Virus record (IMG/VR): IMGVR_UViG_3300045988_174903
Location: 1-21,200 of that record
Length of the DNA: 21,200 nucleotides
Source of the DNA: a virus
Strand: one strand, 5' to 3'
In this document: in pieces, positions 5,039 to 21,200 of the stretch
Position numbering within the stretch: the first letter of the stretch is position 1
Layout of the letters: each line of letters opens with the position of its first letter
Notes under the pieces: generated by a model
The model's input: the letters and a program-made list of their open reading frames with translations, nothing else
Databases searched by the model: none
Told to the model about the DNA's origin: nothing
Position numbers and translations under genes: made by a program

Positions 5039-5971
5039 ATGAGTAACGCACCTACACATAAACTAGATTTGCCCCAGGCGCCAGTCCCGAAAAAGACACT
5101 CCATGAAATTGTGATGTCGGAGGACATGAAGAGACACATTGCCCAGCTTGTAGAGGGCATGATGACGCCGGAACGCTGTATCAGTATCTTCTGGCACTGC
5201 TGCCAGAAAACCCCACTCCTTCAGCAATGCGCCCCTGTAACGCTGATTGCATCCCTGAAAAACCTGCTGATGATGCGTTGTGAGCCTGACGGCATCCACG
5301 GCTATCTTGTTCCTTTTTGGAGCAATGATAAGGCAAGCGGCCGGTCTGTATTGACCTGCGTTGCTGTCCCCTCCGCCCGCGGCCTGATGCGTATGGCCCG
5401 CTCCAATGGCGTCACCAACCTCAATATTGGAATTGTGAGAGAGGGGGAGCCATTTTCCTGGGGCCTGGAAGAAGGAAAATTCGCAATGGGCCACATCCCG
5501 GAATGGGATGACAGCACGGCGCCCATCAGGGGTTTTTATTGCACCTGGACAGACAAGGACCTCTACCTACACGGGGAACGCATGAGCCTGCGCGCCGTGG
5601 AGGAAATCAAGGCCCGCACCAAGTCCCGGAACAAGGAAGGGGAAGTAGTAGGTCCGTGGGTGACTGACTTCGGGCAAATGGGGCTCAAAACGGTCATCAA
5701 GCGTGCCTCCAAGCAATGGGATTTGCCCCTCTACATCCAAGAAGCCATGAGCAGCGCCGACGATCAGGAATTTGGAAGCGAAATGCGGAATGTAACCCCG
5801 TCCAAGGATGAAAACGAGGAAATAGACCCCTTTAACCCGCCCAAACCGGAGGAAAAACGGCCTACGGCATCGGAGGCATTACCGCCTCCAAATGATGATA
5901 CCGATGATTTTTTTGGAAGTCTGAAGGAGCAGGAGCGTGAGTATGTGCCAGCCAATAGAGAGGACTACTAA
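5039..5971 (+). CDS. recT: RecT-family single-strand annealing recombinase
   Basis: GYLVPF...ARGLMRMARSNG...IVREGEPF...GFYCTW...MSLRAVEEIKARTKS...GPW...MGLKTVIKRASKQWDLP matches the RecT (PF03837) pattern. The track ORF opens at TTG 4994; ATG 5039 is preferred. Confidence 0.8.
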   Translation: MSNAPTHKLDLPQAPVPKKTLHEIVMSEDMKRHIAQLVEGMMTPERCISIFWHCCQKTPLLQQCAPVTLIASLKNLLMMRCEPDGIHGYLVPFWSNDKASGRSVLTCVAVPSARGLMRMARSNGVTNLNIGIVREGEPFSWGLEEGKFAMGHIPEWDDSTAPIRGFYCTWTDKDLYLHGERMSLRAVEEIKARTKSRNKEGEVVGPWVTDFGQMGLKTVIKRASKQWDLPLYIQEAMSSADDQEFGSEMRNVTPSKDENEEIDPFNPPKPEEKRPTASEALPPPNDDTDDFFGSLKEQEREYVPANREDY

Positions 5972-11300: not shown

Positions 11301-12605
11301 TCAAGATTGTTTCTTTGTAGACCGCCCCCTTGTATCAAACGCCGGGATATTTAATTTTCTCCTTGCTTTTCCGATAACTTGTATTGATTTGCCTGTTTTA
11401 TTAGCGACTTCTTTATCAGTCATTGTGCCCAGCAGGGATTTAATGTATTCGTCCCCTTCTATTGTTTCTTGCAAGCTTTTTTCCTCACGTAATGCCGGAA
11501 CATTCAATTTCTGTCTAATTCTTCTTACTGCCTCGTCATCAATATTAAATTTTTCGGCTATTACTCTATCATAAACTTTCCCAAGCATAGATAAGAGTTT
11601 TTTACGTTGGTCCGGTGAAAATCTTTCTAAAATGCTTTTACTGAAAGGCTTAATTTTGTTCTGTTCTCTAAATTTTTTAATTACATATACGCTGTACCCT
11701 GTTTTTTTTGCAATTTTTAAATCTGATACTCTTCCCAATAAATTAAGAATTATATCCTTGTCCGCATCCTTAATGGGAGAGTATGGAGCTGGAGCAATTT
11801 TTAATTTTCTACGGTTCCGCGCTACAACATTAAGCGATATTCCAAGCCTTTCAGCAATTTCGCTATCAGGAACTTTCCCAAGCATGGATAGCATTTCTTC
11901 GCGTTTCTCTTCGGGGAATTTAGTATCAGATAATGATGGAATGCCCATCTTTTTTCTAATAAGCGCAATTCCTGCCTTGGAATAACCGAATTTTTTAGCA
12001 ATTTCATCATCCGGGGTCTTTCCAAGCATGTTAATTAACTCTTCGGGATACTCTTTTTTCTTGTGTGGTTTATTTGGGTCTCGTGGCTGACGGGGTTTAC
12101 GCGGCCCCCTATATGACTTAATCCCTAATTTCTTTCTAAGGTAGGCTACTCTGGAATTTGAGTATCCAAACTTCTTGGCACACTCCGAGTCAGGAATTTT
12201 TCCGAGCACTGCAATAAGCTCTTCATCGTGTTGGATGCGGATTGCTTCAGGGCTGCAATACTTTTTGATACCTAATTTATAGCGTTCAGTCTGGACCGTG
12301 ACGCGCGCTATTCCGAGTAGCTCGGCGATTTCCAGATCAGGTTTTTTGCCCAACATGGACCGCATTTCTTCACGCTGTTCGTGAGAAAGAATGCGGTGAA
12401 ACCTCTTTTCTCGGTATTTTTCATGCAATAACTCCATGAGCAATTGCATGTATTCAGGCGTGGGATGTGGTTTTTTAGTATTTAGCCACTTCCAAACAGC
12501 ATCTTCCGTCACCCGCATCATCTGCGCGGCCCTTTTTACAGCTTGGGTAGGATTTGGAAGATTGTTGGCAGTTTGAAGCCAGTCGATAAATTCTTGTGCG
12601 GTCAT
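11301..12605 (-). CDS. Multi-HTH repeat protein: N-terminal Cro/YdaS-like HTH plus seven tandem sigma-r4/Mor/GcrA-like HTH modules
   Basis: 434 aa. The consensus (E)E(L/M)xxMLGKxPDxEIAKKFGYSxxxVxxxRKKLGI recurs with the LG(K/R/T) dipeptide at residues 85, 134, 194, 242, 290, 341 and 392. The repeats are also visible in the DNA (e.g. TTTCCCAAGCAT variants). Confidence 0.8.
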   Translation of the reverse strand: MTAQEFIDWLQTANNLPNPTQAVKRAAQMMRVTEDAVWKWLNTKKPHPTPEYMQLLMELLHEKYREKRFHRILSHEQREEMRSMLGKKPDLEIAELLGIARVTVQTERYKLGIKKYCSPEAIRIQHDEELIAVLGKIPDSECAKKFGYSNSRVAYLRKKLGIKSYRGPRKPRQPRDPNKPHKKKEYPEELINMLGKTPDDEIAKKFGYSKAGIALIRKKMGIPSLSDTKFPEEKREEMLSMLGKVPDSEIAERLGISLNVVARNRRKLKIAPAPYSPIKDADKDIILNLLGRVSDLKIAKKTGYSVYVIKKFREQNKIKPFSKSILERFSPDQRKKLLSMLGKVYDRVIAEKFNIDDEAVRRIRQKLNVPALREEKSLQETIEGDEYIKSLLGTMTDKEVANKTGKSIQVIGKARRKLNIPAFDTRGRSTKKQS

Positions 12606-13147: not shown

Positions 13148-13271
13148 AATTTGTTCTTTCTAGGAACACGTCAGCCCTCCGGGGCTGTGGATTAAAACGA
13201 TCACAAGATCAGCACGAGCGGAAACGCTCATTCCCTTAAAAAGGGCGGTTCTTCGGGGCTGCCCTTTTTTA
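13148..13271 (+). ncRNA. Candidate plus-strand structured small RNA ending in an intrinsic terminator
   Basis: Three hairpins have canonical stable tetraloops only when read on the plus strand. First: CAGCCC-UCCG-GGGCUG (13172-13187). Second: GAGCG-GAAA-CGCUC (13216-13229). Third: a 10-bp stem with a UUCG loop (13242-13265) plus U6. The 5' end is a guess, based on a weak TTGCTT-16-TATGAG at 13114-13141. Confidence 0.35.
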
Positions 13272-13787: not shown

Positions 13788-13892
13788 AAAATCTGTATAT
13801 GTGAGAGGGTCAGATTTGTCAATGGGCCCAGAAAGGAATGAACAAACAGAGTGCTTGATTTGCTAGCTACTTGTCCTCTAGAGTAGACCTGC

Positions 13893-14408
13893 AGGAAAAA
13901 GAAGCAATCACCTACCGCCAACAAGAAAATAGGACGGCCCAGCCTCTATACGGAGGCATTAGCCGACGAGATAGCCTCCCGTTTAGCCAACGGGGAAACG
14001 ATGAAGTCCATTTGCTCGGACGATCACATGCCGGAGGTTTTAACTGTCTGGAGATGGAGGCACGAACGGGAAGAGTTTTGTAAACTCATTCAACGCGCGC
14101 GGGAAGCGCAGTCAGAAGCCATGCTCGACGAGTGTCAGTCTTTGTCAGATGCCGCTGCCCAGGTTGCCCTCGACCCCGAATGCGGATCCGCCTCCGTCGC
14201 TGCCAAGAAGCTCGCCATTGAAACGCGGCTGAAAGTTGCCGCCCGTTTTGCCCCCGAGAAATTCGGCGACCGAGTCCGGCAGGATGTAGCGGGCGTTCCC
14301 GGCGCTCCATTGGAACGCAAAATCACCCTGGACCCCGAGCAGCTTGCCCAGCTCCGGGAAGACGAGAAAACCGCGCTGGAAACCATTGCCGGCAAACTCC
14401 ACCCTTAA
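13893..14408 (+). CDS. terS: Terminase small subunit (start codon unresolved; first ATG is 14001)
   Basis: The in-frame translation from 13893 reads (AGG)KKKQSPTANKKIGRPSLYTEALADEIASRLANGETMKSICSDDHMPEVLTVWRWRHEREEFCKLIQRAREAQSEAMLDE. This is a typical TerS HTH N-terminus, and ATG 14001 would cut it in half. Confidence 0.75.
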   Translation, partial: RKKKQSPTANKKIGRPSLYTEALADEIASRLANGETMKSICSDDHMPEVLTVWRWRHEREEFCKLIQRAREAQSEAMLDECQSLSDAAAQVALDPECGSASVAAKKLAIETRLKVAARFAPEKFGDRVRQDVAGVPGAPLERKITLDPEQLAQLREDEKTALETIAGKLHP

Positions 14409-14414
14409 TCGAGC

Positions 14415-15788
14415 AGGAACCATCTCCCCGTCAGCTTCTTCCTCCGTCACATTCTCGGACTCGATCCTTATCCCTGGCAAATCGAGGCCATCAAGGCATT
14501 GCTTCTTGGAAAGGTGAGGCTGGGAGGTCGAAGCGTGGCCATGGTTGCTCCGAACGGATCGGGAAAGACGAGCCTATCCATTGCGCCCGCAATCCTGTGT
14601 TTCCTTACCTATTTTCCTCGGGGTCAGGTGCCAGTCACGTCATCATCATGGATGCAGGTAGAAAAACAGCTCTTTCCCGCGCTTCGCCGCTATATGGATA
14701 ACCCTTTCTTTGACGGCTGGACATTCAACAAAACCGAAATCCGCACGCCGGAAGGAGGATTTGCCGTGGGATTCTCAACCGACAACGCGGGACGCGCAGA
14801 AGGGTGGCATCCGAAAATCTCGCCCGACGTGGATCCCGTCTTTTACGTCCTGGACGAAGCCAAGACCATTCCCGACTCCATCTTCACCGCTGTTTCCCGC
14901 TGCACGCTCTTCAACGCGTTCATCACCTCGTCGCCGGGTGCCGATTCCGGAACCTTTTACGACTGCTTCCACAAAAATTCATCCCTCTACTACAAAATCC
15001 GCGTTAAATACGAGGATTGCCCGCACATCGAAATCAACGATCCAGGCAAGGCCGAACGCCTGAAAAAAGAATACGGCGAACAGTCCTCCTTCTACCGCTC
15101 GGCCATCCTCGGCGAATTCACGGACCTTGACGGGCAATCCGTCATTTCCCGCCGCGCCATCATGGAGCTGCTCAACAACCCGCCTCCCTTTTTGGACACC
15201 GGGGAGACCTGCGGCGGCTTTGACTTCGCCGCCGGGGGTGATGAGAATGTCTTCGCGGCCGGACAGGGCAACCGTTTTTTCATCGCCGACCACTGGGCCG
15301 ACCCAGACACTGTAGGAGCGCGCGGACGTTTCCGCCGAAAGGCCGCCGAACTCGGCATCTCTGCCGACCGCATCTTTGCCGACGGCGACGGACTGGGGCT
15401 TCCCATCATTGACGACTTCCGGGCTGAGGGTTTCCCCGTGCACTCCTACCGGGGAGGCTTCCCGGCAGATGACACACAAGCCTTTGTCAACCTCCGCGCC
15501 CAAGCATGGAGGGCACTAGCCCGAGCCATCGAAGAAAAAGAGCTCATTCTCGACATCGACGAGGATACCGTTGAGCAACTGGTCGCCCCCCGCCTCCAGA
15601 CGGACGCGATTGGGCGCGTCAAAATCGAGAGCAAGGAGGACATGGCAAAGCGGGGCGTCCGCTCTCCAGACCGTGCTGACGCGCTCGTCATGGCCTGGCA
15701 CGCGCGCCGGCACAGCGGACTTGTCCGGGAGCTTGGGACTTGGTATGCCAGACATCCGGCACAAAAACGCGCCATTGGCAGATATTAG
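14415..15788 (+). CDS. terL: Terminase large subunit (start codon unresolved; first canonical start is TTG 14499)
   Basis: Walker A: VAPNGSGKTS. Walker B: FYVLDEAK. C-terminal nuclease end: SPDRADALVMAW. The conserved-looking LGLDPYPWQIEAIKAL lies upstream of TTG 14499, in the same open frame. Confidence 0.85.
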   Translation, partial: RNHLPVSFFLRHILGLDPYPWQIEAIKALLLGKVRLGGRSVAMVAPNGSGKTSLSIAPAILCFLTYFPRGQVPVTSSSWMQVEKQLFPALRRYMDNPFFDGWTFNKTEIRTPEGGFAVGFSTDNAGRAEGWHPKISPDVDPVFYVLDEAKTIPDSIFTAVSRCTLFNAFITSSPGADSGTFYDCFHKNSSLYYKIRVKYEDCPHIEINDPGKAERLKKEYGEQSSFYRSAILGEFTDLDGQSVISRRAIMELLNNPPPFLDTGETCGGFDFAAGGDENVFAAGQGNRFFIADHWADPDTVGARGRFRRKAAELGISADRIFADGDGLGLPIIDDFRAEGFPVHSYRGGFPADDTQAFVNLRAQAWRALARAIEEKELILDIDEDTVEQLVAPRLQTDAIGRVKIESKEDMAKRGVRSPDRADALVMAWHARRHSGLVRELGTWYARHPAQKRAIGRY

Positions 15789-15790
15789 GG

Positions 15791-15834
15791 TTGACAATAT
15801 ATCAACATATCTATATGTGTTGATTTATATTCAA
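15791..15834. repeat. AT-rich imperfect palindrome in the TerL-portal spacer
   Basis: ATCAACATAT (15801-15810), CTAT, ATGTGTTGAT (15815-15824). The flanks TTGACAATAT / TTATATTCAA partly extend it. It contains TTGACA at 15791-15796. Confidence 0.6.
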
Positions 15835-16031
15835 TCGCAGGGTAGTGAAACGGTATCATATGAGGTTCCTGTCCTCATGTCGGAGGTCCAACTCCTCCCC
15901 CTGCAACCAACCTTTTCTTTTCCTCCCGCCGCAGGTTTAACGCCGTCCGAAATATCCTCAACGCCCCGAAGCTGGTCGCCCAACAGGAGACCAGAATCAA
16001 GGAGCTGGAAACAGACCTCGCCCGGCAAGCC

Positions 16032-17297
16032 TTGACGGACCGGAGCCGCACTCCTGGCCGCCCTCAATGGTTTGAATACTGGGACCCTCTTCAGGGCGCC
16101 GGCTTGCAAACACTTATCGATGCACGCAACGAAGCCAGACGCGGCGCCTTTGCGCGGCAAATGCTCATCTGGGACGAGGTTATCTACTCGGACGGACTTC
16201 TGGGCATGCTCTACTCCCGGTTGATTGAAAGCGTTTCCATGCAGGGCTGGAAGATTGACGCCGCGGACGACAGCCCGGAAGCCCAGCAGCAGAAAAACGC
16301 CCTGGAAGAATTCTACAACTCCGTCAACGGACTTCAGCAGTCCTTCGGGCATCTGGCCTCCGCTCTGTTCTACGGCTACGCCCACCTCCAATATATTGAG
16401 GACGCCTGGGGCCGGAGGTTTGAATTCATTCCCCAGCGTTACTGGGTGCGGCCCGGGGAACTTAATGAGTGGCAATTTAACCCCCACTGTTATATCGGCG
16501 TCGATACCGGGGAAAGTGTGGAAGACGAAACTCTCGTCGTGATGGAGCACCGTTACCCCATCCTGTTCCCTGCTTCCCGCGCATCCTTTGAGCGCAACCA
16601 CGCCAAGATGATCTGGGACAACCACATGGACCGTTACGGCTCCGCCCCGGCTATTATCACAGCCCCCAAGGAGGCAAGCGCCGCTGTTATGGACGCACTT
16701 GAGCGCGCCTGCGAAGAGCTCAAGTCTGGCGCATCCGTCGTCCTGCCTCCCGGCTGTACAGCAGAACCTCTCAAGGCATCCTCCATCAACGAAAACTACT
16801 TCCTATCCCGCATCAACATGGCCGACAAGGATCAGGTGCGGTTTGTGATGGCAGGAACCTTGACTGTTCTGAATGAATCGGGCTCCGGCACGCTGGCCGG
16901 GTCTGCCCATACGGACAGCTGGAACTCGGTGGTCTCCGCCGTGTGCTCCAAGGTAGCGGAAGCTTTTAACGCCTCCATCAGCCCGCTGGTGCTGAGAGAC
17001 GGCGAACCGCTGGCCCGCCTCCAAATCACCTTTGACACCGTTCAGACGCCGCTGCAGAAGGCCGAGGAAATTGCCGCTCTTGCGGATGGAGGCGTCCGTC
17101 CCGAGAAAACCGAAATCGAAGAAAAGATCGGCATGTCCATCGAAGACGCGAAGGCAGCCGATCCCGCAGCGGCTGCCGTCAACCGGGAACCGGAAGGCAC
17201 ATACATCCCCGCCGACGCTTACGAGCAGCTGCAGCAGCTCATTTATACCGGGCTCATGAAAGGATTTAGCGATGATCAGTACCAAACAAATCAATGA
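16032..17297 (+). CDS. Portal protein, Mu gp29-like (DUF935 family); may start upstream (open frame back to 15864)
   Basis: N-terminal LQTLIDARNEARRGAFARQMLIWDEVIYSDGLLGMLYSRLIESV...WKI matches my recollection of the DUF935 pattern. Size and position (after TerL, before the protease) also fit. Confidence 0.75.
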   Translation: MTDRSRTPGRPQWFEYWDPLQGAGLQTLIDARNEARRGAFARQMLIWDEVIYSDGLLGMLYSRLIESVSMQGWKIDAADDSPEAQQQKNALEEFYNSVNGLQQSFGHLASALFYGYAHLQYIEDAWGRRFEFIPQRYWVRPGELNEWQFNPHCYIGVDTGESVEDETLVVMEHRYPILFPASRASFERNHAKMIWDNHMDRYGSAPAIITAPKEASAAVMDALERACEELKSGASVVLPPGCTAEPLKASSINENYFLSRINMADKDQVRFVMAGTLTVLNESGSGTLAGSAHTDSWNSVVSAVCSKVAEAFNASISPLVLRDGEPLARLQITFDTVQTPLQKAEEIAALADGGVRPEKTEIEEKIGMSIEDAKAADPAAAAVNREPEGTYIPADAYEQLQQLIYTGLMKGFSDDQYQTNQ

Positions 17298-18393
17298 CCT
17301 GTCCAATCCCGCCAACGGCTGGTTCCACGTCGAGAAAAGCGGAGATCATGAGGTCGACTACGGCGAGGGGCCTGCGGTGCTCCGCATAGACGAGCAGGCG
17401 ATCAAGTCCATGGTGGATGAATTCAACTCCCGCACCTTTGACGGGCCCGGCATGCTCATTGACGGCGACCACTTGAGCCATGACCTTTCACGCGACACTC
17501 GCGCTCTCGGATGGCTCAAGCGGCTGGACACCTACCGCGATCCTTCCGGCGCGTTGGAGTTGTACGGCTTCATCGAATGGACGCCACGCGGGCAGCAAAT
17601 GCTGGCCGACAAAGAATATACGCAATCCTCCACTGAATACGGAGAGGGCATGACGTTCGAGGGCGGCATTTACCGTCCCGCCAAGCTGACAGGCTTCGCC
17701 CTGACCAACCGTCCCCGAATTAAGGGGAAGCGCCCTCTGGTCAACCGACAGACTTCCCCCGCCTCCACGGAGACCGGGGGCGAACAACAAAGCCCCGAAC
17801 AGGGGGAAAACAACCCAGAAACCAATATGGAAAACGACGATAGAGAATATCCGTCCAAGGAAATGGACAAGGCCCAGCGGGCCCTGTTTGATTCCCTGCT
17901 TGACAAGCTGGATGTCGAATTTGACGGCACCGACGACATGAGCAGGGACATCCTCGGACGCCTCGATGAACTGCTCTCGCTGGAAAAGCGGGAGAAAGAC
18001 CACGTGAACGCCGAAGTGGACGACGCCGTCAGCACGTATGAAAACGAGCTGGACGAGGAAGAGCGCAAGGAATTCACGGAAGAACGCCGGGAAGAGCTGA
18101 AAAACTCTCTCCGGGAAAGTCCGGCCGCACTGGGCGCCTTTGTCAAGGCTCTCAATCGGTCCGCGAAGTCAAAGCCGCCGCATGACGTTGTTGACGAAAG
18201 CCGCCGAAATCCAGCTGGAAGAACGTCCTTGAACCGCCGCGCTACCCAGGCGCCGCCCAATCCGTTCCGCAAGAAGGAATCCATCGACGGATTCCAGAAC
18301 CGCGTCGACGAATTAATGAAGGGCGGCATGAAGCGGTACGACGCCTTCCAGAAAGCCACCGAAGAAGGCTACATTGTAACCTCCGAACGATAA
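17272..18393 (+). CDS. Mu gpI-like head maturation protease fused to a scaffold-like charged C-terminal half
   Basis: GWFHV...GDH...IDGDHLSH...ALGWLKRL...LYGFIEWTPRGQQMLADKEY...LTNRPRI resembles Mu-like prophage protein I (PF10123). The C-terminal half is E/K/D-rich and looks coiled-coil. Confidence 0.7.
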   Translation: MISTKQINDLSNPANGWFHVEKSGDHEVDYGEGPAVLRIDEQAIKSMVDEFNSRTFDGPGMLIDGDHLSHDLSRDTRALGWLKRLDTYRDPSGALELYGFIEWTPRGQQMLADKEYTQSSTEYGEGMTFEGGIYRPAKLTGFALTNRPRIKGKRPLVNRQTSPASTETGGEQQSPEQGENNPETNMENDDREYPSKEMDKAQRALFDSLLDKLDVEFDGTDDMSRDILGRLDELLSLEKREKDHVNAEVDDAVSTYENELDEEERKEFTEERREELKNSLRESPAALGAFVKALNRSAKSKPPHDVVDESRRNPAGRTSLNRRATQAPPNPFRKKESIDGFQNRVDELMKGGMKRYDAFQKATEEGYIVTSER

Positions 18394-18413
18394 CCCCAAC
18401 CTGATACAAACCA

Positions 18414-18845
18414 ATGCCATCACTCAATGTAACCCAGAAAAGCGCCATCGTCTATTTCAACACCCCGGAGGGTGTTGACCTGTGCGGACAGGAAGGAACC
18501 GTCGTGGCGCTGACCGCCAACCCGGACATCCCCGAGTTTATCGGGACGCCGTTGTCCGCCATCCCTACGCAGACACAGCTGCTCGGCGTAGTCCTGCAAG
18601 GGCAGCCCAACCAGGGAACCTGCGTCGCCGCCCTCGTCGGCATGTACGCCGGCCTGATCAAGGCGGCTCTTTCCGACACGCCGGGCACGATCAACGCCGG
18701 AACGCCCCTCACCATCACGGCCAACGGAGCATGGAAGGCCGCCGCCAGCGGTGAAACCGTCTATGCCCGCGTGATTCACGCCCAGTGGGAACAGGGCATG
18801 GTGGAAATCGGCTTCGTCCCCTCCTACCAGGTCGCGGCTGCGTAA
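18414..18845 (+). CDS. Head decoration / DUF2190-like structural protein
   Basis: 143 aa, Gly/Ala/Thr-rich, located between the protease/scaffold and the major capsid gene. Assignment rests mainly on position and composition. Confidence 0.45.
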   Translation: MPSLNVTQKSAIVYFNTPEGVDLCGQEGTVVALTANPDIPEFIGTPLSAIPTQTQLLGVVLQGQPNQGTCVAALVGMYAGLIKAALSDTPGTINAGTPLTITANGAWKAAASGETVYARVIHAQWEQGMVEIGFVPSYQVAAA

Positions 18846-18879
18846 CATCAACCCCAACCAATAGAAAGACCAAAAAACA

Positions 18880-19803
18880 AGGGCTACTCCATTTTGCTCA
18901 GCCGTCCAGTTCACCGATGTCCTGACCGCCTACTCAGCCGGCTCCGGGAACACCGAAGAGAACTCCATTATCAGCCGCATCGCGCCGATCGTCCCGGTTT
19001 ACGACCTCAATTTCCAGTACAAGGTCTGGGACACGGAATCTGCCTTTACGGTCCAGCCGATCCAGGTGGGACCGGGCGAACCTCCCCGCCAGACCGTCCT
19101 GCGCGGCAGGAACGAAACCGACACCCTTCAGGGGTACGGCTTAACCTTGCCGATTCCGGACGCCTTGCTGGGCGTCAACCGCGAAAAGGCGCAGGCTATC
19201 ACCCTGGCGGAATACAAGCTCATCGAATCACAGTTTGTGACCTCGTATGAATATGAACGCGCCAAGCTCATCACCAGCCAGTTGCCTGCCGCAGCCGGTT
19301 ACGGGGACTGGGCCAACGAACAGAAGAATCCGCTGACGGATCTGGATAATGCCATCCTGTCCATCAATGCGGCGACTGGACACATGCCTAACACCATCGT
19401 CTTTGGCATCAACGCCTGGCAGCTCCTGCGAGCCAACCCCATTGCCAGACAGGTGGTGTCATTCAACAGTGTCGGCCTCTTCAACGAAGACCTGCTCCGC
19501 AATGCGCTGATTCGGCCTATCAGGGATATTTACATCGCAGCCATGCCCTACCGCGACGCTTCCGGCGACGCCAAGACCATCATGGAGAACGAAGTCTATG
19601 TCCTGTACAAGGAAGACTCCCCGACGCAGTTCGACGCCTCTGCCATCAAGACGTTTGGTTTGTCCGGCAAGCTCCGCCGCGAAGTCATCACGGAATACAA
19701 GCCGACGCCCGCTTTGACGCTGGTAACCAACCGCGTCTACTCGCTGACCAAGCTGACCAACCCGTCCGCCATCGTCCGCATCGACGCGACGGCCACGGCT
19801 TAA
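18880..19803 (+). CDS. Major capsid protein (HK97 fold, lambda gpE-like family); start codon unresolved (first canonical start is GTG 19066)
   Basis: NPLTDLDNAILSINAATGHMPNTIVFGINAWQLLRANPIARQVV is the characteristic gpE-family motif. The frame is open and protein-like from 18865 (…SAVQFTDVLTAYSAGSGNTEENSIISRIAPIVPVYDLNFQYKVWD). Confidence 0.8.
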   Translation, partial: RATPFCSAVQFTDVLTAYSAGSGNTEENSIISRIAPIVPVYDLNFQYKVWDTESAFTVQPIQVGPGEPPRQTVLRGRNETDTLQGYGLTLPIPDALLGVNREKAQAITLAEYKLIESQFVTSYEYERAKLITSQLPAAAGYGDWANEQKNPLTDLDNAILSINAATGHMPNTIVFGINAWQLLRANPIARQVVSFNSVGLFNEDLLRNALIRPIRDIYIAAMPYRDASGDAKTIMENEVYVLYKEDSPTQFDASAIKTFGLSGKLRREVITEYKPTPALTLVTNRVYSLTKLTNPSAIVRIDATATA

Positions 19804-19824
19804 CCCACCCAACCCGCCTCCATC

Positions 19825-20301
19825 ATGTCCGCCTTTCCCGCCTGGTCCACCATCACTACGGATGAAGCCGACCGACTCCTCGGCCTCAACACTGCGGAGC
19901 GCGACGCCCTGGTGAAAGCCGGGGAGCTGCGCAGCCTGGACTACCGGGACGTCATGATGGAGGCGGTCAACGATGTCTGCATGGCCATCCGCGGGGCGCT
20001 GGCCAACAACCTCGCCCTGCGGCAATCGCTCCAGAATAGCGGCATGTACGACATCCCGCAGAGCATGCGCTCCCTGGCGTGGCCGCTGATCATCCGGCAG
20101 CTTTACCTGCGCTACCAGATCAACCTGACCGAAACGCGCCAGAAAGCCGCTGAATCGGCCGATGAGATGCTGGCCCGCTATGCACGAGGCGAAATGCTGC
20201 CGGAAAGCGTAGACGGCGCCGCCCCGGCGGACCCCGCCTACATGATGCCGCGCTTCACTCAGCGCCCCTGGTTCAACCCCATGAGAAGCACCTACCGATG
20301 A
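19825..20301 (+). CDS. Head completion / connector-like protein (Mu gp36, DUF1320-like)
   Basis: 158 aa, directly after the capsid gene. The N-terminal segment TDEADRLLGLNTAERDALV resembles DUF1320. This is a weak call. Confidence 0.4.
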   Translation: MSAFPAWSTITTDEADRLLGLNTAERDALVKAGELRSLDYRDVMMEAVNDVCMAIRGALANNLALRQSLQNSGMYDIPQSMRSLAWPLIIRQLYLRYQINLTETRQKAAESADEMLARYARGEMLPESVDGAAPADPAYMMPRFTQRPWFNPMRSTYR

Positions 20302-21200
20302 TGACCGCCGCCCAGATGGAGATGATCGCCAACGACTACGCCGAACGCGCCTTTTTCGTGTCCGGCGTGGAGCCCGGCGTTATCCTGTCCGACTTTGAGG
20401 AAAAGGCGGGGAAGGTCGCCTCCGGCGCCCTGAGCTATGAAGAGGCGCAGCAGTCCATCCGCGAAACCCTGCGCCAGCAGGGCTACCGACCGCCGGCAAC
20501 GGGGCAGGGCGGCATTCAGGATTTGTCATCCTGGCTCCGCATCCAGGTCGTCATGGAAACCAATGCGGCCATGGCGCACGGCTACCGGAACTGGTACAAC
20601 TGGACACAGGACGACAGTACGGCCGCCTTCAAATTTTACCGCTCCCAGGGCCGGGAAGATCCCCGCTACTGGGCCGAACGCTGGAACCGGGCCAGAGCCG
20701 GATTGGAAGAAGAAGCCACGGAGGCAGTTTCTTCTGGTTTCATCCGCGGCGAAACCGTCGGCTACGCCCTGGCGGCCTCCGACATCTGGATTCGCCTCTC
20801 GCGCTTCGGAACGCCTTATCCTCCCTTCGATTACCTTTCCGGCATGAACATTGCCCCCGTGGGAGCCGAAGAAGCCCGCGCGGCCGGACTGGAGGTTTCC
20901 CGCGTCCGTCTCGCTCCCGCCAGCTTCAACGCCACTCTGGAAAGCAATACTATAAGTATCACGAACGCCAATAAAAAGAAGATCCGCCGCATCCTGAAAG
21001 ACGCCGTGCGTGTTAAAACCGAGAACGACCGCAATACCACCTTTACCTACACCGACCCGAACGGGACGCGCCCTTACACGGACGCGGAACTGGCGGAAGT
21101 CCTGTCCGGGGATTTCCCAGAAGAGATCCCCTTGCGCCAGGCCCAGGCGTTCCGTCTGGCGGCAGCCGGGGGAGCCGGGGCCGCAAGGCAGGCTGCCGTT
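20298..21200 (+). CDS. Structural/morphogenesis protein, 5' partial view (ORF runs off the window; absent from the ORF track)
   Basis: I translated from ATGATG at 20298 and the frame stays open to 21200 (MMTAAQMEMIANDYAERAFFVSG...NWYNWTQDD...DPRYWAERWN...). ATGA overlap with the previous gene. Third codon positions are strongly G/C-biased. Confidence 0.65.
   Translation, partial: MMTAAQMEMIANDYAERAFFVSGVEPGVILSDFEEKAGKVASGALSYEEAQQSIRETLRQQGYRPPATGQGGIQDLSSWLRIQVVMETNAAMAHGYRNWYNWTQDDSTAAFKFYRSQGREDPRYWAERWNRARAGLEEEATEAVSSGFIRGETVGYALAASDIWIRLSRFGTPYPPFDYLSGMNIAPVGAEEARAAGLEVSRVRLAPASFNATLESNTISITNANKKKIRRILKDAVRVKTENDRNTTFTYTDPNGTRPYTDAELAEVLSGDFPEEIPLRQAQAFRLAAAGGAGAARQAAV

Follow-up and report, generated by a model that had tools for sequence, protein, structure and literature searches.

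The question raised by this stretch of DNA is how four of its late genes are translated when each has an in-frame AGG where a canonical start codon is expected. The stretch comprises positions 1 to 21,200 of the IMG/VR virus record IMGVR_UViG_3300045988_174903 (21,200 nucleotides [nt], hereafter the window). The host of this prophage is Akkermansia muciniphila, a much-studied commensal of the human gut and probiotic candidate. The four genes encode the small terminase (terS), the large terminase (terL), the portal protein and the major capsid protein. A tRNA gene with a CCT anticodon lies between terL and the portal gene. From comparison of sequences, this phage-encoded tRNA is very probably a second initiator tRNA, whose CCU anticodon would make AGG the start codon of the four genes and of two further late genes. 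The five features concerned are listed below with their window coordinates and their lengths in amino acids (aa).

13893..14408, plus strand: terS, small terminase (Sf6-type), 171 aa, AGG start at 13893
14415..15788, plus strand: terL, large terminase, 457 aa, AGG start at 14415, two codons after the terS stop
15836..15909, plus strand: initiator-type tRNA, anticodon CCT, CCA encoded (ARAGORN; Rfam tRNA, 51 bits)
15933..17297, plus strand: portal gene (Mu-type), 454 aa, AGG start at 15933, 23 nt 3' of the tRNA end
18880..19803, plus strand: major capsid gene (major head protein), 307 aa, AGG start at 18880

Reading of the open reading frames (ORFs) confirmed the AGG positions and the product lengths given in an earlier, sequence-only reading of the window, and Pfam and PHROG profiles agreed with the four gene identities it had assigned. 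Each ORF is open from its AGG to its own stop, with no internal in-frame stops. For terS, terL, portal and capsid, respectively, the nearest upstream in-frame stops are 2, 2, 23 and 5 codons away (TAG 13884, TAA 14406, TGA 15861, and TAG 18862), and the first in-frame ATG, GTG or TTG is 36, 28, 33 and 62 codons 3' of the AGG. The AGG context is GCAGG at terS, terL and portal, in line with the three of four sites described before, and ACAAGG at capsid. The late genes at 17272, 18414, 19825, and 20298 begin with ATG, also as described before; a Mu-like protease/scaffold gene and small genes (Pfam, PHROGs) are among the ATG-started genes interleaved with the AGG-started ones. The AGG(A) motifs do not act as Shine-Dalgarno elements for other starts, a point on which the sequence-only reading held up, since no start codon follows at usable spacing downstream.

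Three other routes into these frames were tried and rejected. Stop-codon readthrough (of TAG or TGA) fails because the upstream in-frame stops differ (TAG, TAA, and TGA) and nothing upstream is conserved. A frameshift into portal from an upstream ORF fails because the open frame that precedes portal is the tRNA. Near-cognate starts (ATA, ATT, ATC, and CTG) were sought, and none was conserved across relatives.

About 90 related Akkermansia phage loci, isolate-derived entries included, were gathered from IMG/VR, GTDB genomes, GenBank phages (CP084202.1), and metagenomes. The alignment of the four sites with homologues that the sequence-only reading had proposed was thereby run, and it gave AGG across these loci and ATG or TTG in a sister lineage without the tRNA. 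AGG was found at the start of terS in 81 of 82 loci, terL in 85 of 86, portal in 86 of 86, and capsid in 87 of 88, which bears out the earlier statement that the pattern is unlikely to be random decay. Each AGG site occurred in 19–32 distinct sequence contexts among the relatives. Two more AGG-started late genes lie past the right end of the window, with AGG in 38 of 38 and 35 of 35 loci. Their positions in one relative, locus L084, are as follows.

L084 20096-20743: extra late gene 1, 216 aa, AGG start
L084 20795-22804: extra late gene 2, about 670 aa, AGG start

The AGG of extra late gene 2 directly adjoins a G+C hairpin followed by a T-run.

Judged from family profiles, distant homologues, and variation among relatives, the terS, terL, portal and capsid proteins truly begin at the AGG. 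In terS, position 3 of the PHROG profile corresponds to residue 7 counted from the AGG, and positions 1-105 of the Pfam Sf6_terminase profile cover residues 19-130; the first ATG is residue 37. The portal protein matched Pfam Portal_Mu, and position 31 of the PHROG 113 profile corresponds to its residue 32. In capsid, position 14 of the PHROG 1005 profile corresponds to residue 13. Altogether, the AGG lies within about 1–4 residues of the family N-terminus in these three genes, which are the ones with an informative profile match. The start of terL was placed by distant homologues, not by a profile match: thirty-odd were found, and none of them starts downstream of the position equivalent to the AGG.

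Variation among the related loci changes in character at the AGG. Of the 30 bases 5' of it, 22–29 are variable and show no codon periodicity; at the AGG there is zero variation. After the AGG, variable sites at codon positions 1, 2 and 3 number 9, 3 and 24 in terL, 13, 6 and 28 in portal, and 17, 19 and 49 in capsid. Because variation is concentrated at third positions from the next codon on and absent at the AGG, the coding constraint starts at the AGG. The RNA around the four AGG starts is weakly structured (z +1.3 to +2.0), as it is around four neighboring ATG starts (z +1.7 to +2.25), unlike the RNA around eight internal AGG codons, which is not weakly structured. In-frame AGG is rare in the late genes of the window (3.4 per 1000 codons vs. 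12.2 in the early genes), yet it sits at family N-termini and is conserved across loci; on these comparisons, its placement at gene starts is not chance.

Public capsid gene calls (P0002, P0003, P0013, P0022, and P0032) are N-terminally truncated, with lengths of 245, 246 or 278 aa compared with 307 aa, because gene callers reject AGG as a start. RefSeq entries named 'major capsid protein [Akkermansia muciniphila]' are among the shortened ones (278 aa in RefSeq, 245–246 aa elsewhere).

Natural exchanges of the start codon were found in two places. The first is L027, the most divergent relative still carrying the tRNA. Its capsid gene has ATG at the exact AGG codon (MANLFYSAVQFTDV vs. (R)ATPFCSAVQFTDV, both 307 aa), and its terL has ATG one codon 3' of the AGG position. 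AGG is kept at terS and portal of L027, and the same contig (locus L098) keeps AGG at both extra genes. The second is a sister lineage, L216–L218, which was reached via a full-length public capsid protein, P0001 (84% identical), and in which the terL-portal interval lacks the tRNA. Capsid in this lineage starts with ATG, portal with TTG, and both extra genes with ATG, in each case at the very codon that aligns with the AGG; the L216 capsid counted from its ATG is 307 aa. The sister terL starts with ATG and has an N-terminus two residues longer. Since the lineage that lacks the tRNA has ATG or TTG at the AGG positions, tRNA and AGG starts come and go together, and their presence co-occurs across the lineages compared.

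The sequence-only reading had offered a genuinely unusual initiation mechanism as one of its possible explanations. That part is supported by the comparative data; what it overlooked was the initiator-like tRNA(CCU), which lies inside the interval it described. The CCT anticodon is the exact complement of AGG (ARAGORN, Rfam), and Rfam marks the 1:72 pair as non-standard. The 5' end of the tRNA is CGCAGGG and the 3' end CCCTGCAACCA; the corresponding ends of E. coli tRNAfMet, the sequence of which was checked against 5426 E. coli genomes, are CGCGGGG and CCCCGCAACCA. Of the two E. coli tRNAs compared with it, tRNAfMet is 69% identical and tRNA-Arg(CCU) 55%.

The tRNA was present in 85 loci as 21 distinct variants. 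C1·A72, C3:G70, A73, CCA, the CCT anticodon, and G30:C40 are invariant in all 21 variants, and G2:C71 is present in 20, with G:U in the remaining one. The pair 29:41 is G:C in 19 variants and A:U in two, the window copy being among those, and 31:39 is G:C in 19 variants and U:G in two. All 20 regular stem pairs were intact in the 15 variants tested, with compensatory changes at eight pairs. In bacterial initiators, the 1:72 mismatch and the 2:71 and 3:70 pairs are formyltransferase determinants, and consecutive G:C pairs at 29:41, 30:40, and 31:39 of the anticodon stem serve P-site use, the middle pair being essential (PMC5389676). The conservation of these three pairs among the phage variants follows the same ranking. 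By these features, the tRNA combines initiator hallmarks with an AGG-reading anticodon. As its sequence stands, it is neither a strict tRNAfMet nor a normal tRNA-Arg, but an initiator-type body with another anticodon.

The loops of the tRNA are atypical. The T loop (15887-15893) is TCCAACT, with C55 where U is near-universal, and TTCAA occurs in only three of the 21 variants. In the D loop (15849-15855), the second G of the GG varies among G, T, C and A. The elbow of the tRNA appears unusually relaxed. The base at -1 of the AGG is C at all terL, portal and extra-gene sites and at 73 of 81 terS sites, and is always A at capsid. A fourth base pair, between G37 of the tRNA and C at -1, was considered and rejected: no covariation was found, and the A37 variant (L013 group) retains C at -1.

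IMG/VR was scanned by pattern for initiator-type tRNAs with any non-CAT anticodon, using a strict template (CGCNGGN acceptor, three G:C pairs, U33, and A72-A73), and only this Akkermansia phage family was genuine. The other matches were chance matches or ordinary CAT tRNAs. On one metagenome contig (L207, about 5040-5063), the tRNA before the portal AGG is reduced to its final 12 nt, CCCCTGCAACCA. Upstream of this remnant is more than 5 kb of unrelated DNA with an ERCC4-domain gene, a 696-aa ORF, and a GYF_2-domain gene. This arrangement is either an element inserted in the phage tRNA gene or an assembly chimera.

In the proposed mechanism, the phage tRNA(CCU) would enter the ribosomal P site as an initiator and pair with AGG. 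Bacterial initiators carry a formylated amino acid, are bound by IF2 in the P site, and are kept from EF-Tu; for the phage tRNA, such use has indirect support in the six genes that begin with its cognate codon. The host initiator tRNA would read AGG poorly, so that the virion genes would be translated only when the phage tRNA is present. Identity elements for arginyl-tRNA synthetase (ArgRS) are A20 in the D loop and C35 and U36 in the anticodon, and methionyl-tRNA synthetase (MetRS) requires CAU. On these rules, charging would follow the anticodon and would most likely be with arginine. The tRNA would probably be formylated, because its acceptor-stem formyltransferase determinants are intact. 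No synthetase, formyltransferase or deformylase gene was found in the window by Pfam or PHROGs profile search. The only tRNAs ARAGORN found within the window were Ser(GCT) and the CCT tRNA.

Two elements upstream of the AGG-started genes bear on how the mechanism may be controlled.

13855..13884, plus strand: promoter-like element 5' of terS (TTGATT, 18 nt, TAGAGT, then 8 nt to the AGG)
15791..15834, plus strand: AT-rich inverted repeat with 20-nt arms, containing TTGACA, between the terL stop and the tRNA

A motif of TTGnnn, 16–19 nt, and TAnnnT ending 6–9 nt before the terS AGG was found in 26 of 29 sequence-distinct upstream regions, compared with 0.4% of random window positions. With the transcription start placed by this motif, the terS mRNA is predicted to be leaderless or nearly so, and terS would be translated from such an mRNA. 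terL may be started by re-initiation two codons past the terS stop. The arms of the inverted repeat are 80% complementary, and the repeat is kept in 21 distinct sequences, among which some of its pairs covary; it is a candidate tRNA promoter, operator, or RNA processing hairpin. The conserved TTGACA within this palindrome, just 5' of the tRNA, suggests separate control of the tRNA and is the basis of the translational-switch idea. Speculatively, the arrangement would be a translational lock on virion production, possibly governed via the palindrome and promoter 5' of the tRNA. Taken as a whole, the system can with reasonable confidence be regarded as a natural start-codon reassignment, in which an orthogonal initiator tRNA(CCU) would serve AGG starts in at least six virion and packaging genes, presumably with (formyl-)arginine and as a tRNA-dependent translational switch.

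Several observations weigh against this interpretation. The window copy of the tRNA has A29:U41 and hence two of the three G:C pairs of the anticodon stem; natural initiator variants without the full three G:C pairs do exist (PMC5389676). The pair 11:24 is U:A in 21 of 21 variants, as in elongators. Position 20 is U by standard numbering, which is somewhat ambiguous for this 7-nt D loop (AACGGTA); with no A20, arginine may be attached inefficiently, and it is uncertain which amino acid is used. E. coli tRNAfMet is likewise without A20. A tRNA that reads a codon beginning with A would not usually have G37, which 19 of the 21 variants carry. Bacterial initiators typically carry A11:U24. A simple 'lock' model is weakened by the place of the tRNA, inside the very operon that it would govern. 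As for the leaderless part, leaderless mRNAs in E. coli reportedly need AUG itself, not mere codon-anticodon complementarity.

The rival account closest to an initiator role for the tRNA accepts the AGGs as real starts and makes the phage tRNA dispensable: initiation would proceed by leaderless 70S ribosomes, by termination-reinitiation, or with the host tRNAfMet as a near-cognate reader, and tRNA(CCU) would have another role. The apparently leaderless terS is consistent with this account, as is terL, whose place two codons after the terS stop is a geometry favoring re-initiation, but the account has to explain six genes in four different contexts in which AGG is the sole non-canonical triplet. 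It also meets the established difficulty that AGG mismatches AUG at the middle position, which is poorly tolerated by a CAU anticodon. The module's only tRNA, moreover, reads exactly AGG, has the invariant 1:72 mismatch, and is missing where the starts are ATG or TTG. Initiation without the phage tRNA is thus unlikely.

It is very unlikely that the tRNA is an ordinary elongator tRNA-Arg(CCU) supplying a rare codon and that the genes start at the downstream canonical codons. AGG is avoided in the late genes such a tRNA would supply, C1·A72 is invariant, and starting downstream would cost the proteins their conserved family N-termini (as many as 62 residues in capsid) when coding constraint already runs from the codon after the AGG. 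In L027 and L216, ATG stands in place of AGG at the same codon and gives proteins of equal length. Against these points can be set the ARAGORN label of tRNA-Arg, the commonness of rare-codon tRNAs in phages, and the downstream starts taken by the public capsid calls of 245–278 aa.

The sequence-only reading had also raised silencing of virion production in a domesticated or engineered prophage. Inactivation of the start codons in a prophage that is decaying, domesticated or engineered would account for four essential genes without canonical starts, but it is extremely unlikely: the same state is found in about 90 diverged loci, one relative, CP084202.1, has been entered in GenBank as a complete phage genome, and purifying selection acts on both the genes and the tRNA, with codon periodicity after the conserved AGGs and compensatory changes in the matching tRNA. 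A search of part of the supplementary sequences for the inducible, virion-producing A. muciniphila YL44 prophages (PMC8008629) turned up neither the tRNA nor the capsid motifs. A sequencing or base-modification artefact that read ATG as AGG, the remaining suggestion of the sequence-only reading, has only the recurrence of the same triplet in its favor and practically no likelihood, since about 90 loci assembled independently across projects and platforms (isolate-derived entries, CP084202.1, and metagenomes) share the AGGs, other ATG starts in the operon were read correctly, and a matching tRNA anticodon cannot be an artefact.

The proposed second initiator tRNA was compared with known systems. 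Like tRNAfMet, the phage tRNA has C1·A72, G2:C71, C3:G70, A73, and a G:C-rich anticodon stem with the invariant G30:C40. Unlike tRNAfMet, it has CCU in place of CAU, as well as U11:A24, its T loop is atypical (mostly with C55), and it lies in a phage late operon; with CCU instead of CAU, it cannot be a MetRS substrate by known identity rules. With elongator tRNA-Arg(CCU) it shares the anticodon. It differs from that tRNA in the 1:72 mismatch, the lack of A20, and G37, and AGG is not heavily used by the late genes. A Watson-Crick 1:72 pair is needed for elongator use of EF-Tu.

The natural non-AUG starts GUG, UUG, CUG, AUU, and AUA are near-cognate and are read by the ordinary tRNAfMet(CAU), whereas AGG has its own cognate initiator-type tRNA. 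Engineered initiators (amber, i-tRNA-AAC) start translation only at the codon that matches their changed anticodon, with the amino acid of that anticodon, partly formylated, and a phiX174 biocontainment design altered capsid start codons to depend on an engineered initiator tRNA. The phage tRNA resembles these in being an initiator body with a changed anticodon matched to a non-AUG start, the capsid gene included. The engineered systems are laboratory constructs in which the tRNA comes from the host strain; the phage tRNA is natural, is carried by the phage, and is matched to a sense codon, AGG.

In its logic, the system comes nearest, among natural ones, to phage stop-codon recoding via suppressor tRNAs, in which the affected genes are mainly late or structural, suggesting translational timing control (bioRxiv 10.1101/2021.08.26.457843). 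In both cases a phage tRNA alters codon reading in late genes. Recoding concerns a stop codon and elongation; here the start codon would be reassigned, and the window has neither in-frame stops in these genes nor a suppressor tRNA. Phage tRNAs have otherwise been described as serving codon supplementation or evasion of anticodon nucleases (PMC10264068), in contrast to which the cognate AGG is depleted in the late genes and the hallmarks of the tRNA are those of an initiator, not of an elongator. A search of the full-text literature, most subscription journals being outside its coverage, yielded neither a natural non-CAU initiator tRNA nor an AGG start codon.

Additionally, several neighboring features of the window were recorded. 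A 434-aa protein encoded at 11304-12605 (minus strand), divergent from and just upstream of the late operon, contains several separate helix-turn-helix segments (HTH_23, HTH_28, and Sigma70_r4-like) and is a candidate regulator. Between the early/regulatory region and the late operon, positions 13238-13269 form a strong symmetric hairpin of 14 pairs flanked by an A-run and a T-run, which looks like a bidirectional terminator. A tRNA-Ser(GCT) at 328-420, followed by a tyrosine-type integrase at 557-1744, looks like the left end of the prophage, integrated at a host tRNA-Ser gene. Two stop-free frames, at 20441-20974 (177 codons) and 19392-19865 (157 codons), are without ATG, GTG, TTG or AGG and overlap real genes in other frames; the region is G+C-rich, and they most likely do not code.

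To our knowledge, every described natural initiator tRNA reads AUG with a CAU anticodon, and we know of no natural precedent for the AGG-start system, only of engineered analogues. Genes with AGG starts are mis-annotated by gene callers, and standard pipelines would miss similar systems elsewhere. If the proposed role of the tRNA is true, these phages would carry a naturally evolved orthogonal initiation pair for synthetic biology, and theirs would be the first natural start-codon reassignment and the first dedicated non-methionine initiation. Gating of late genes in this way would likewise be new for phages, the start-codon counterpart of stop-codon recoding.

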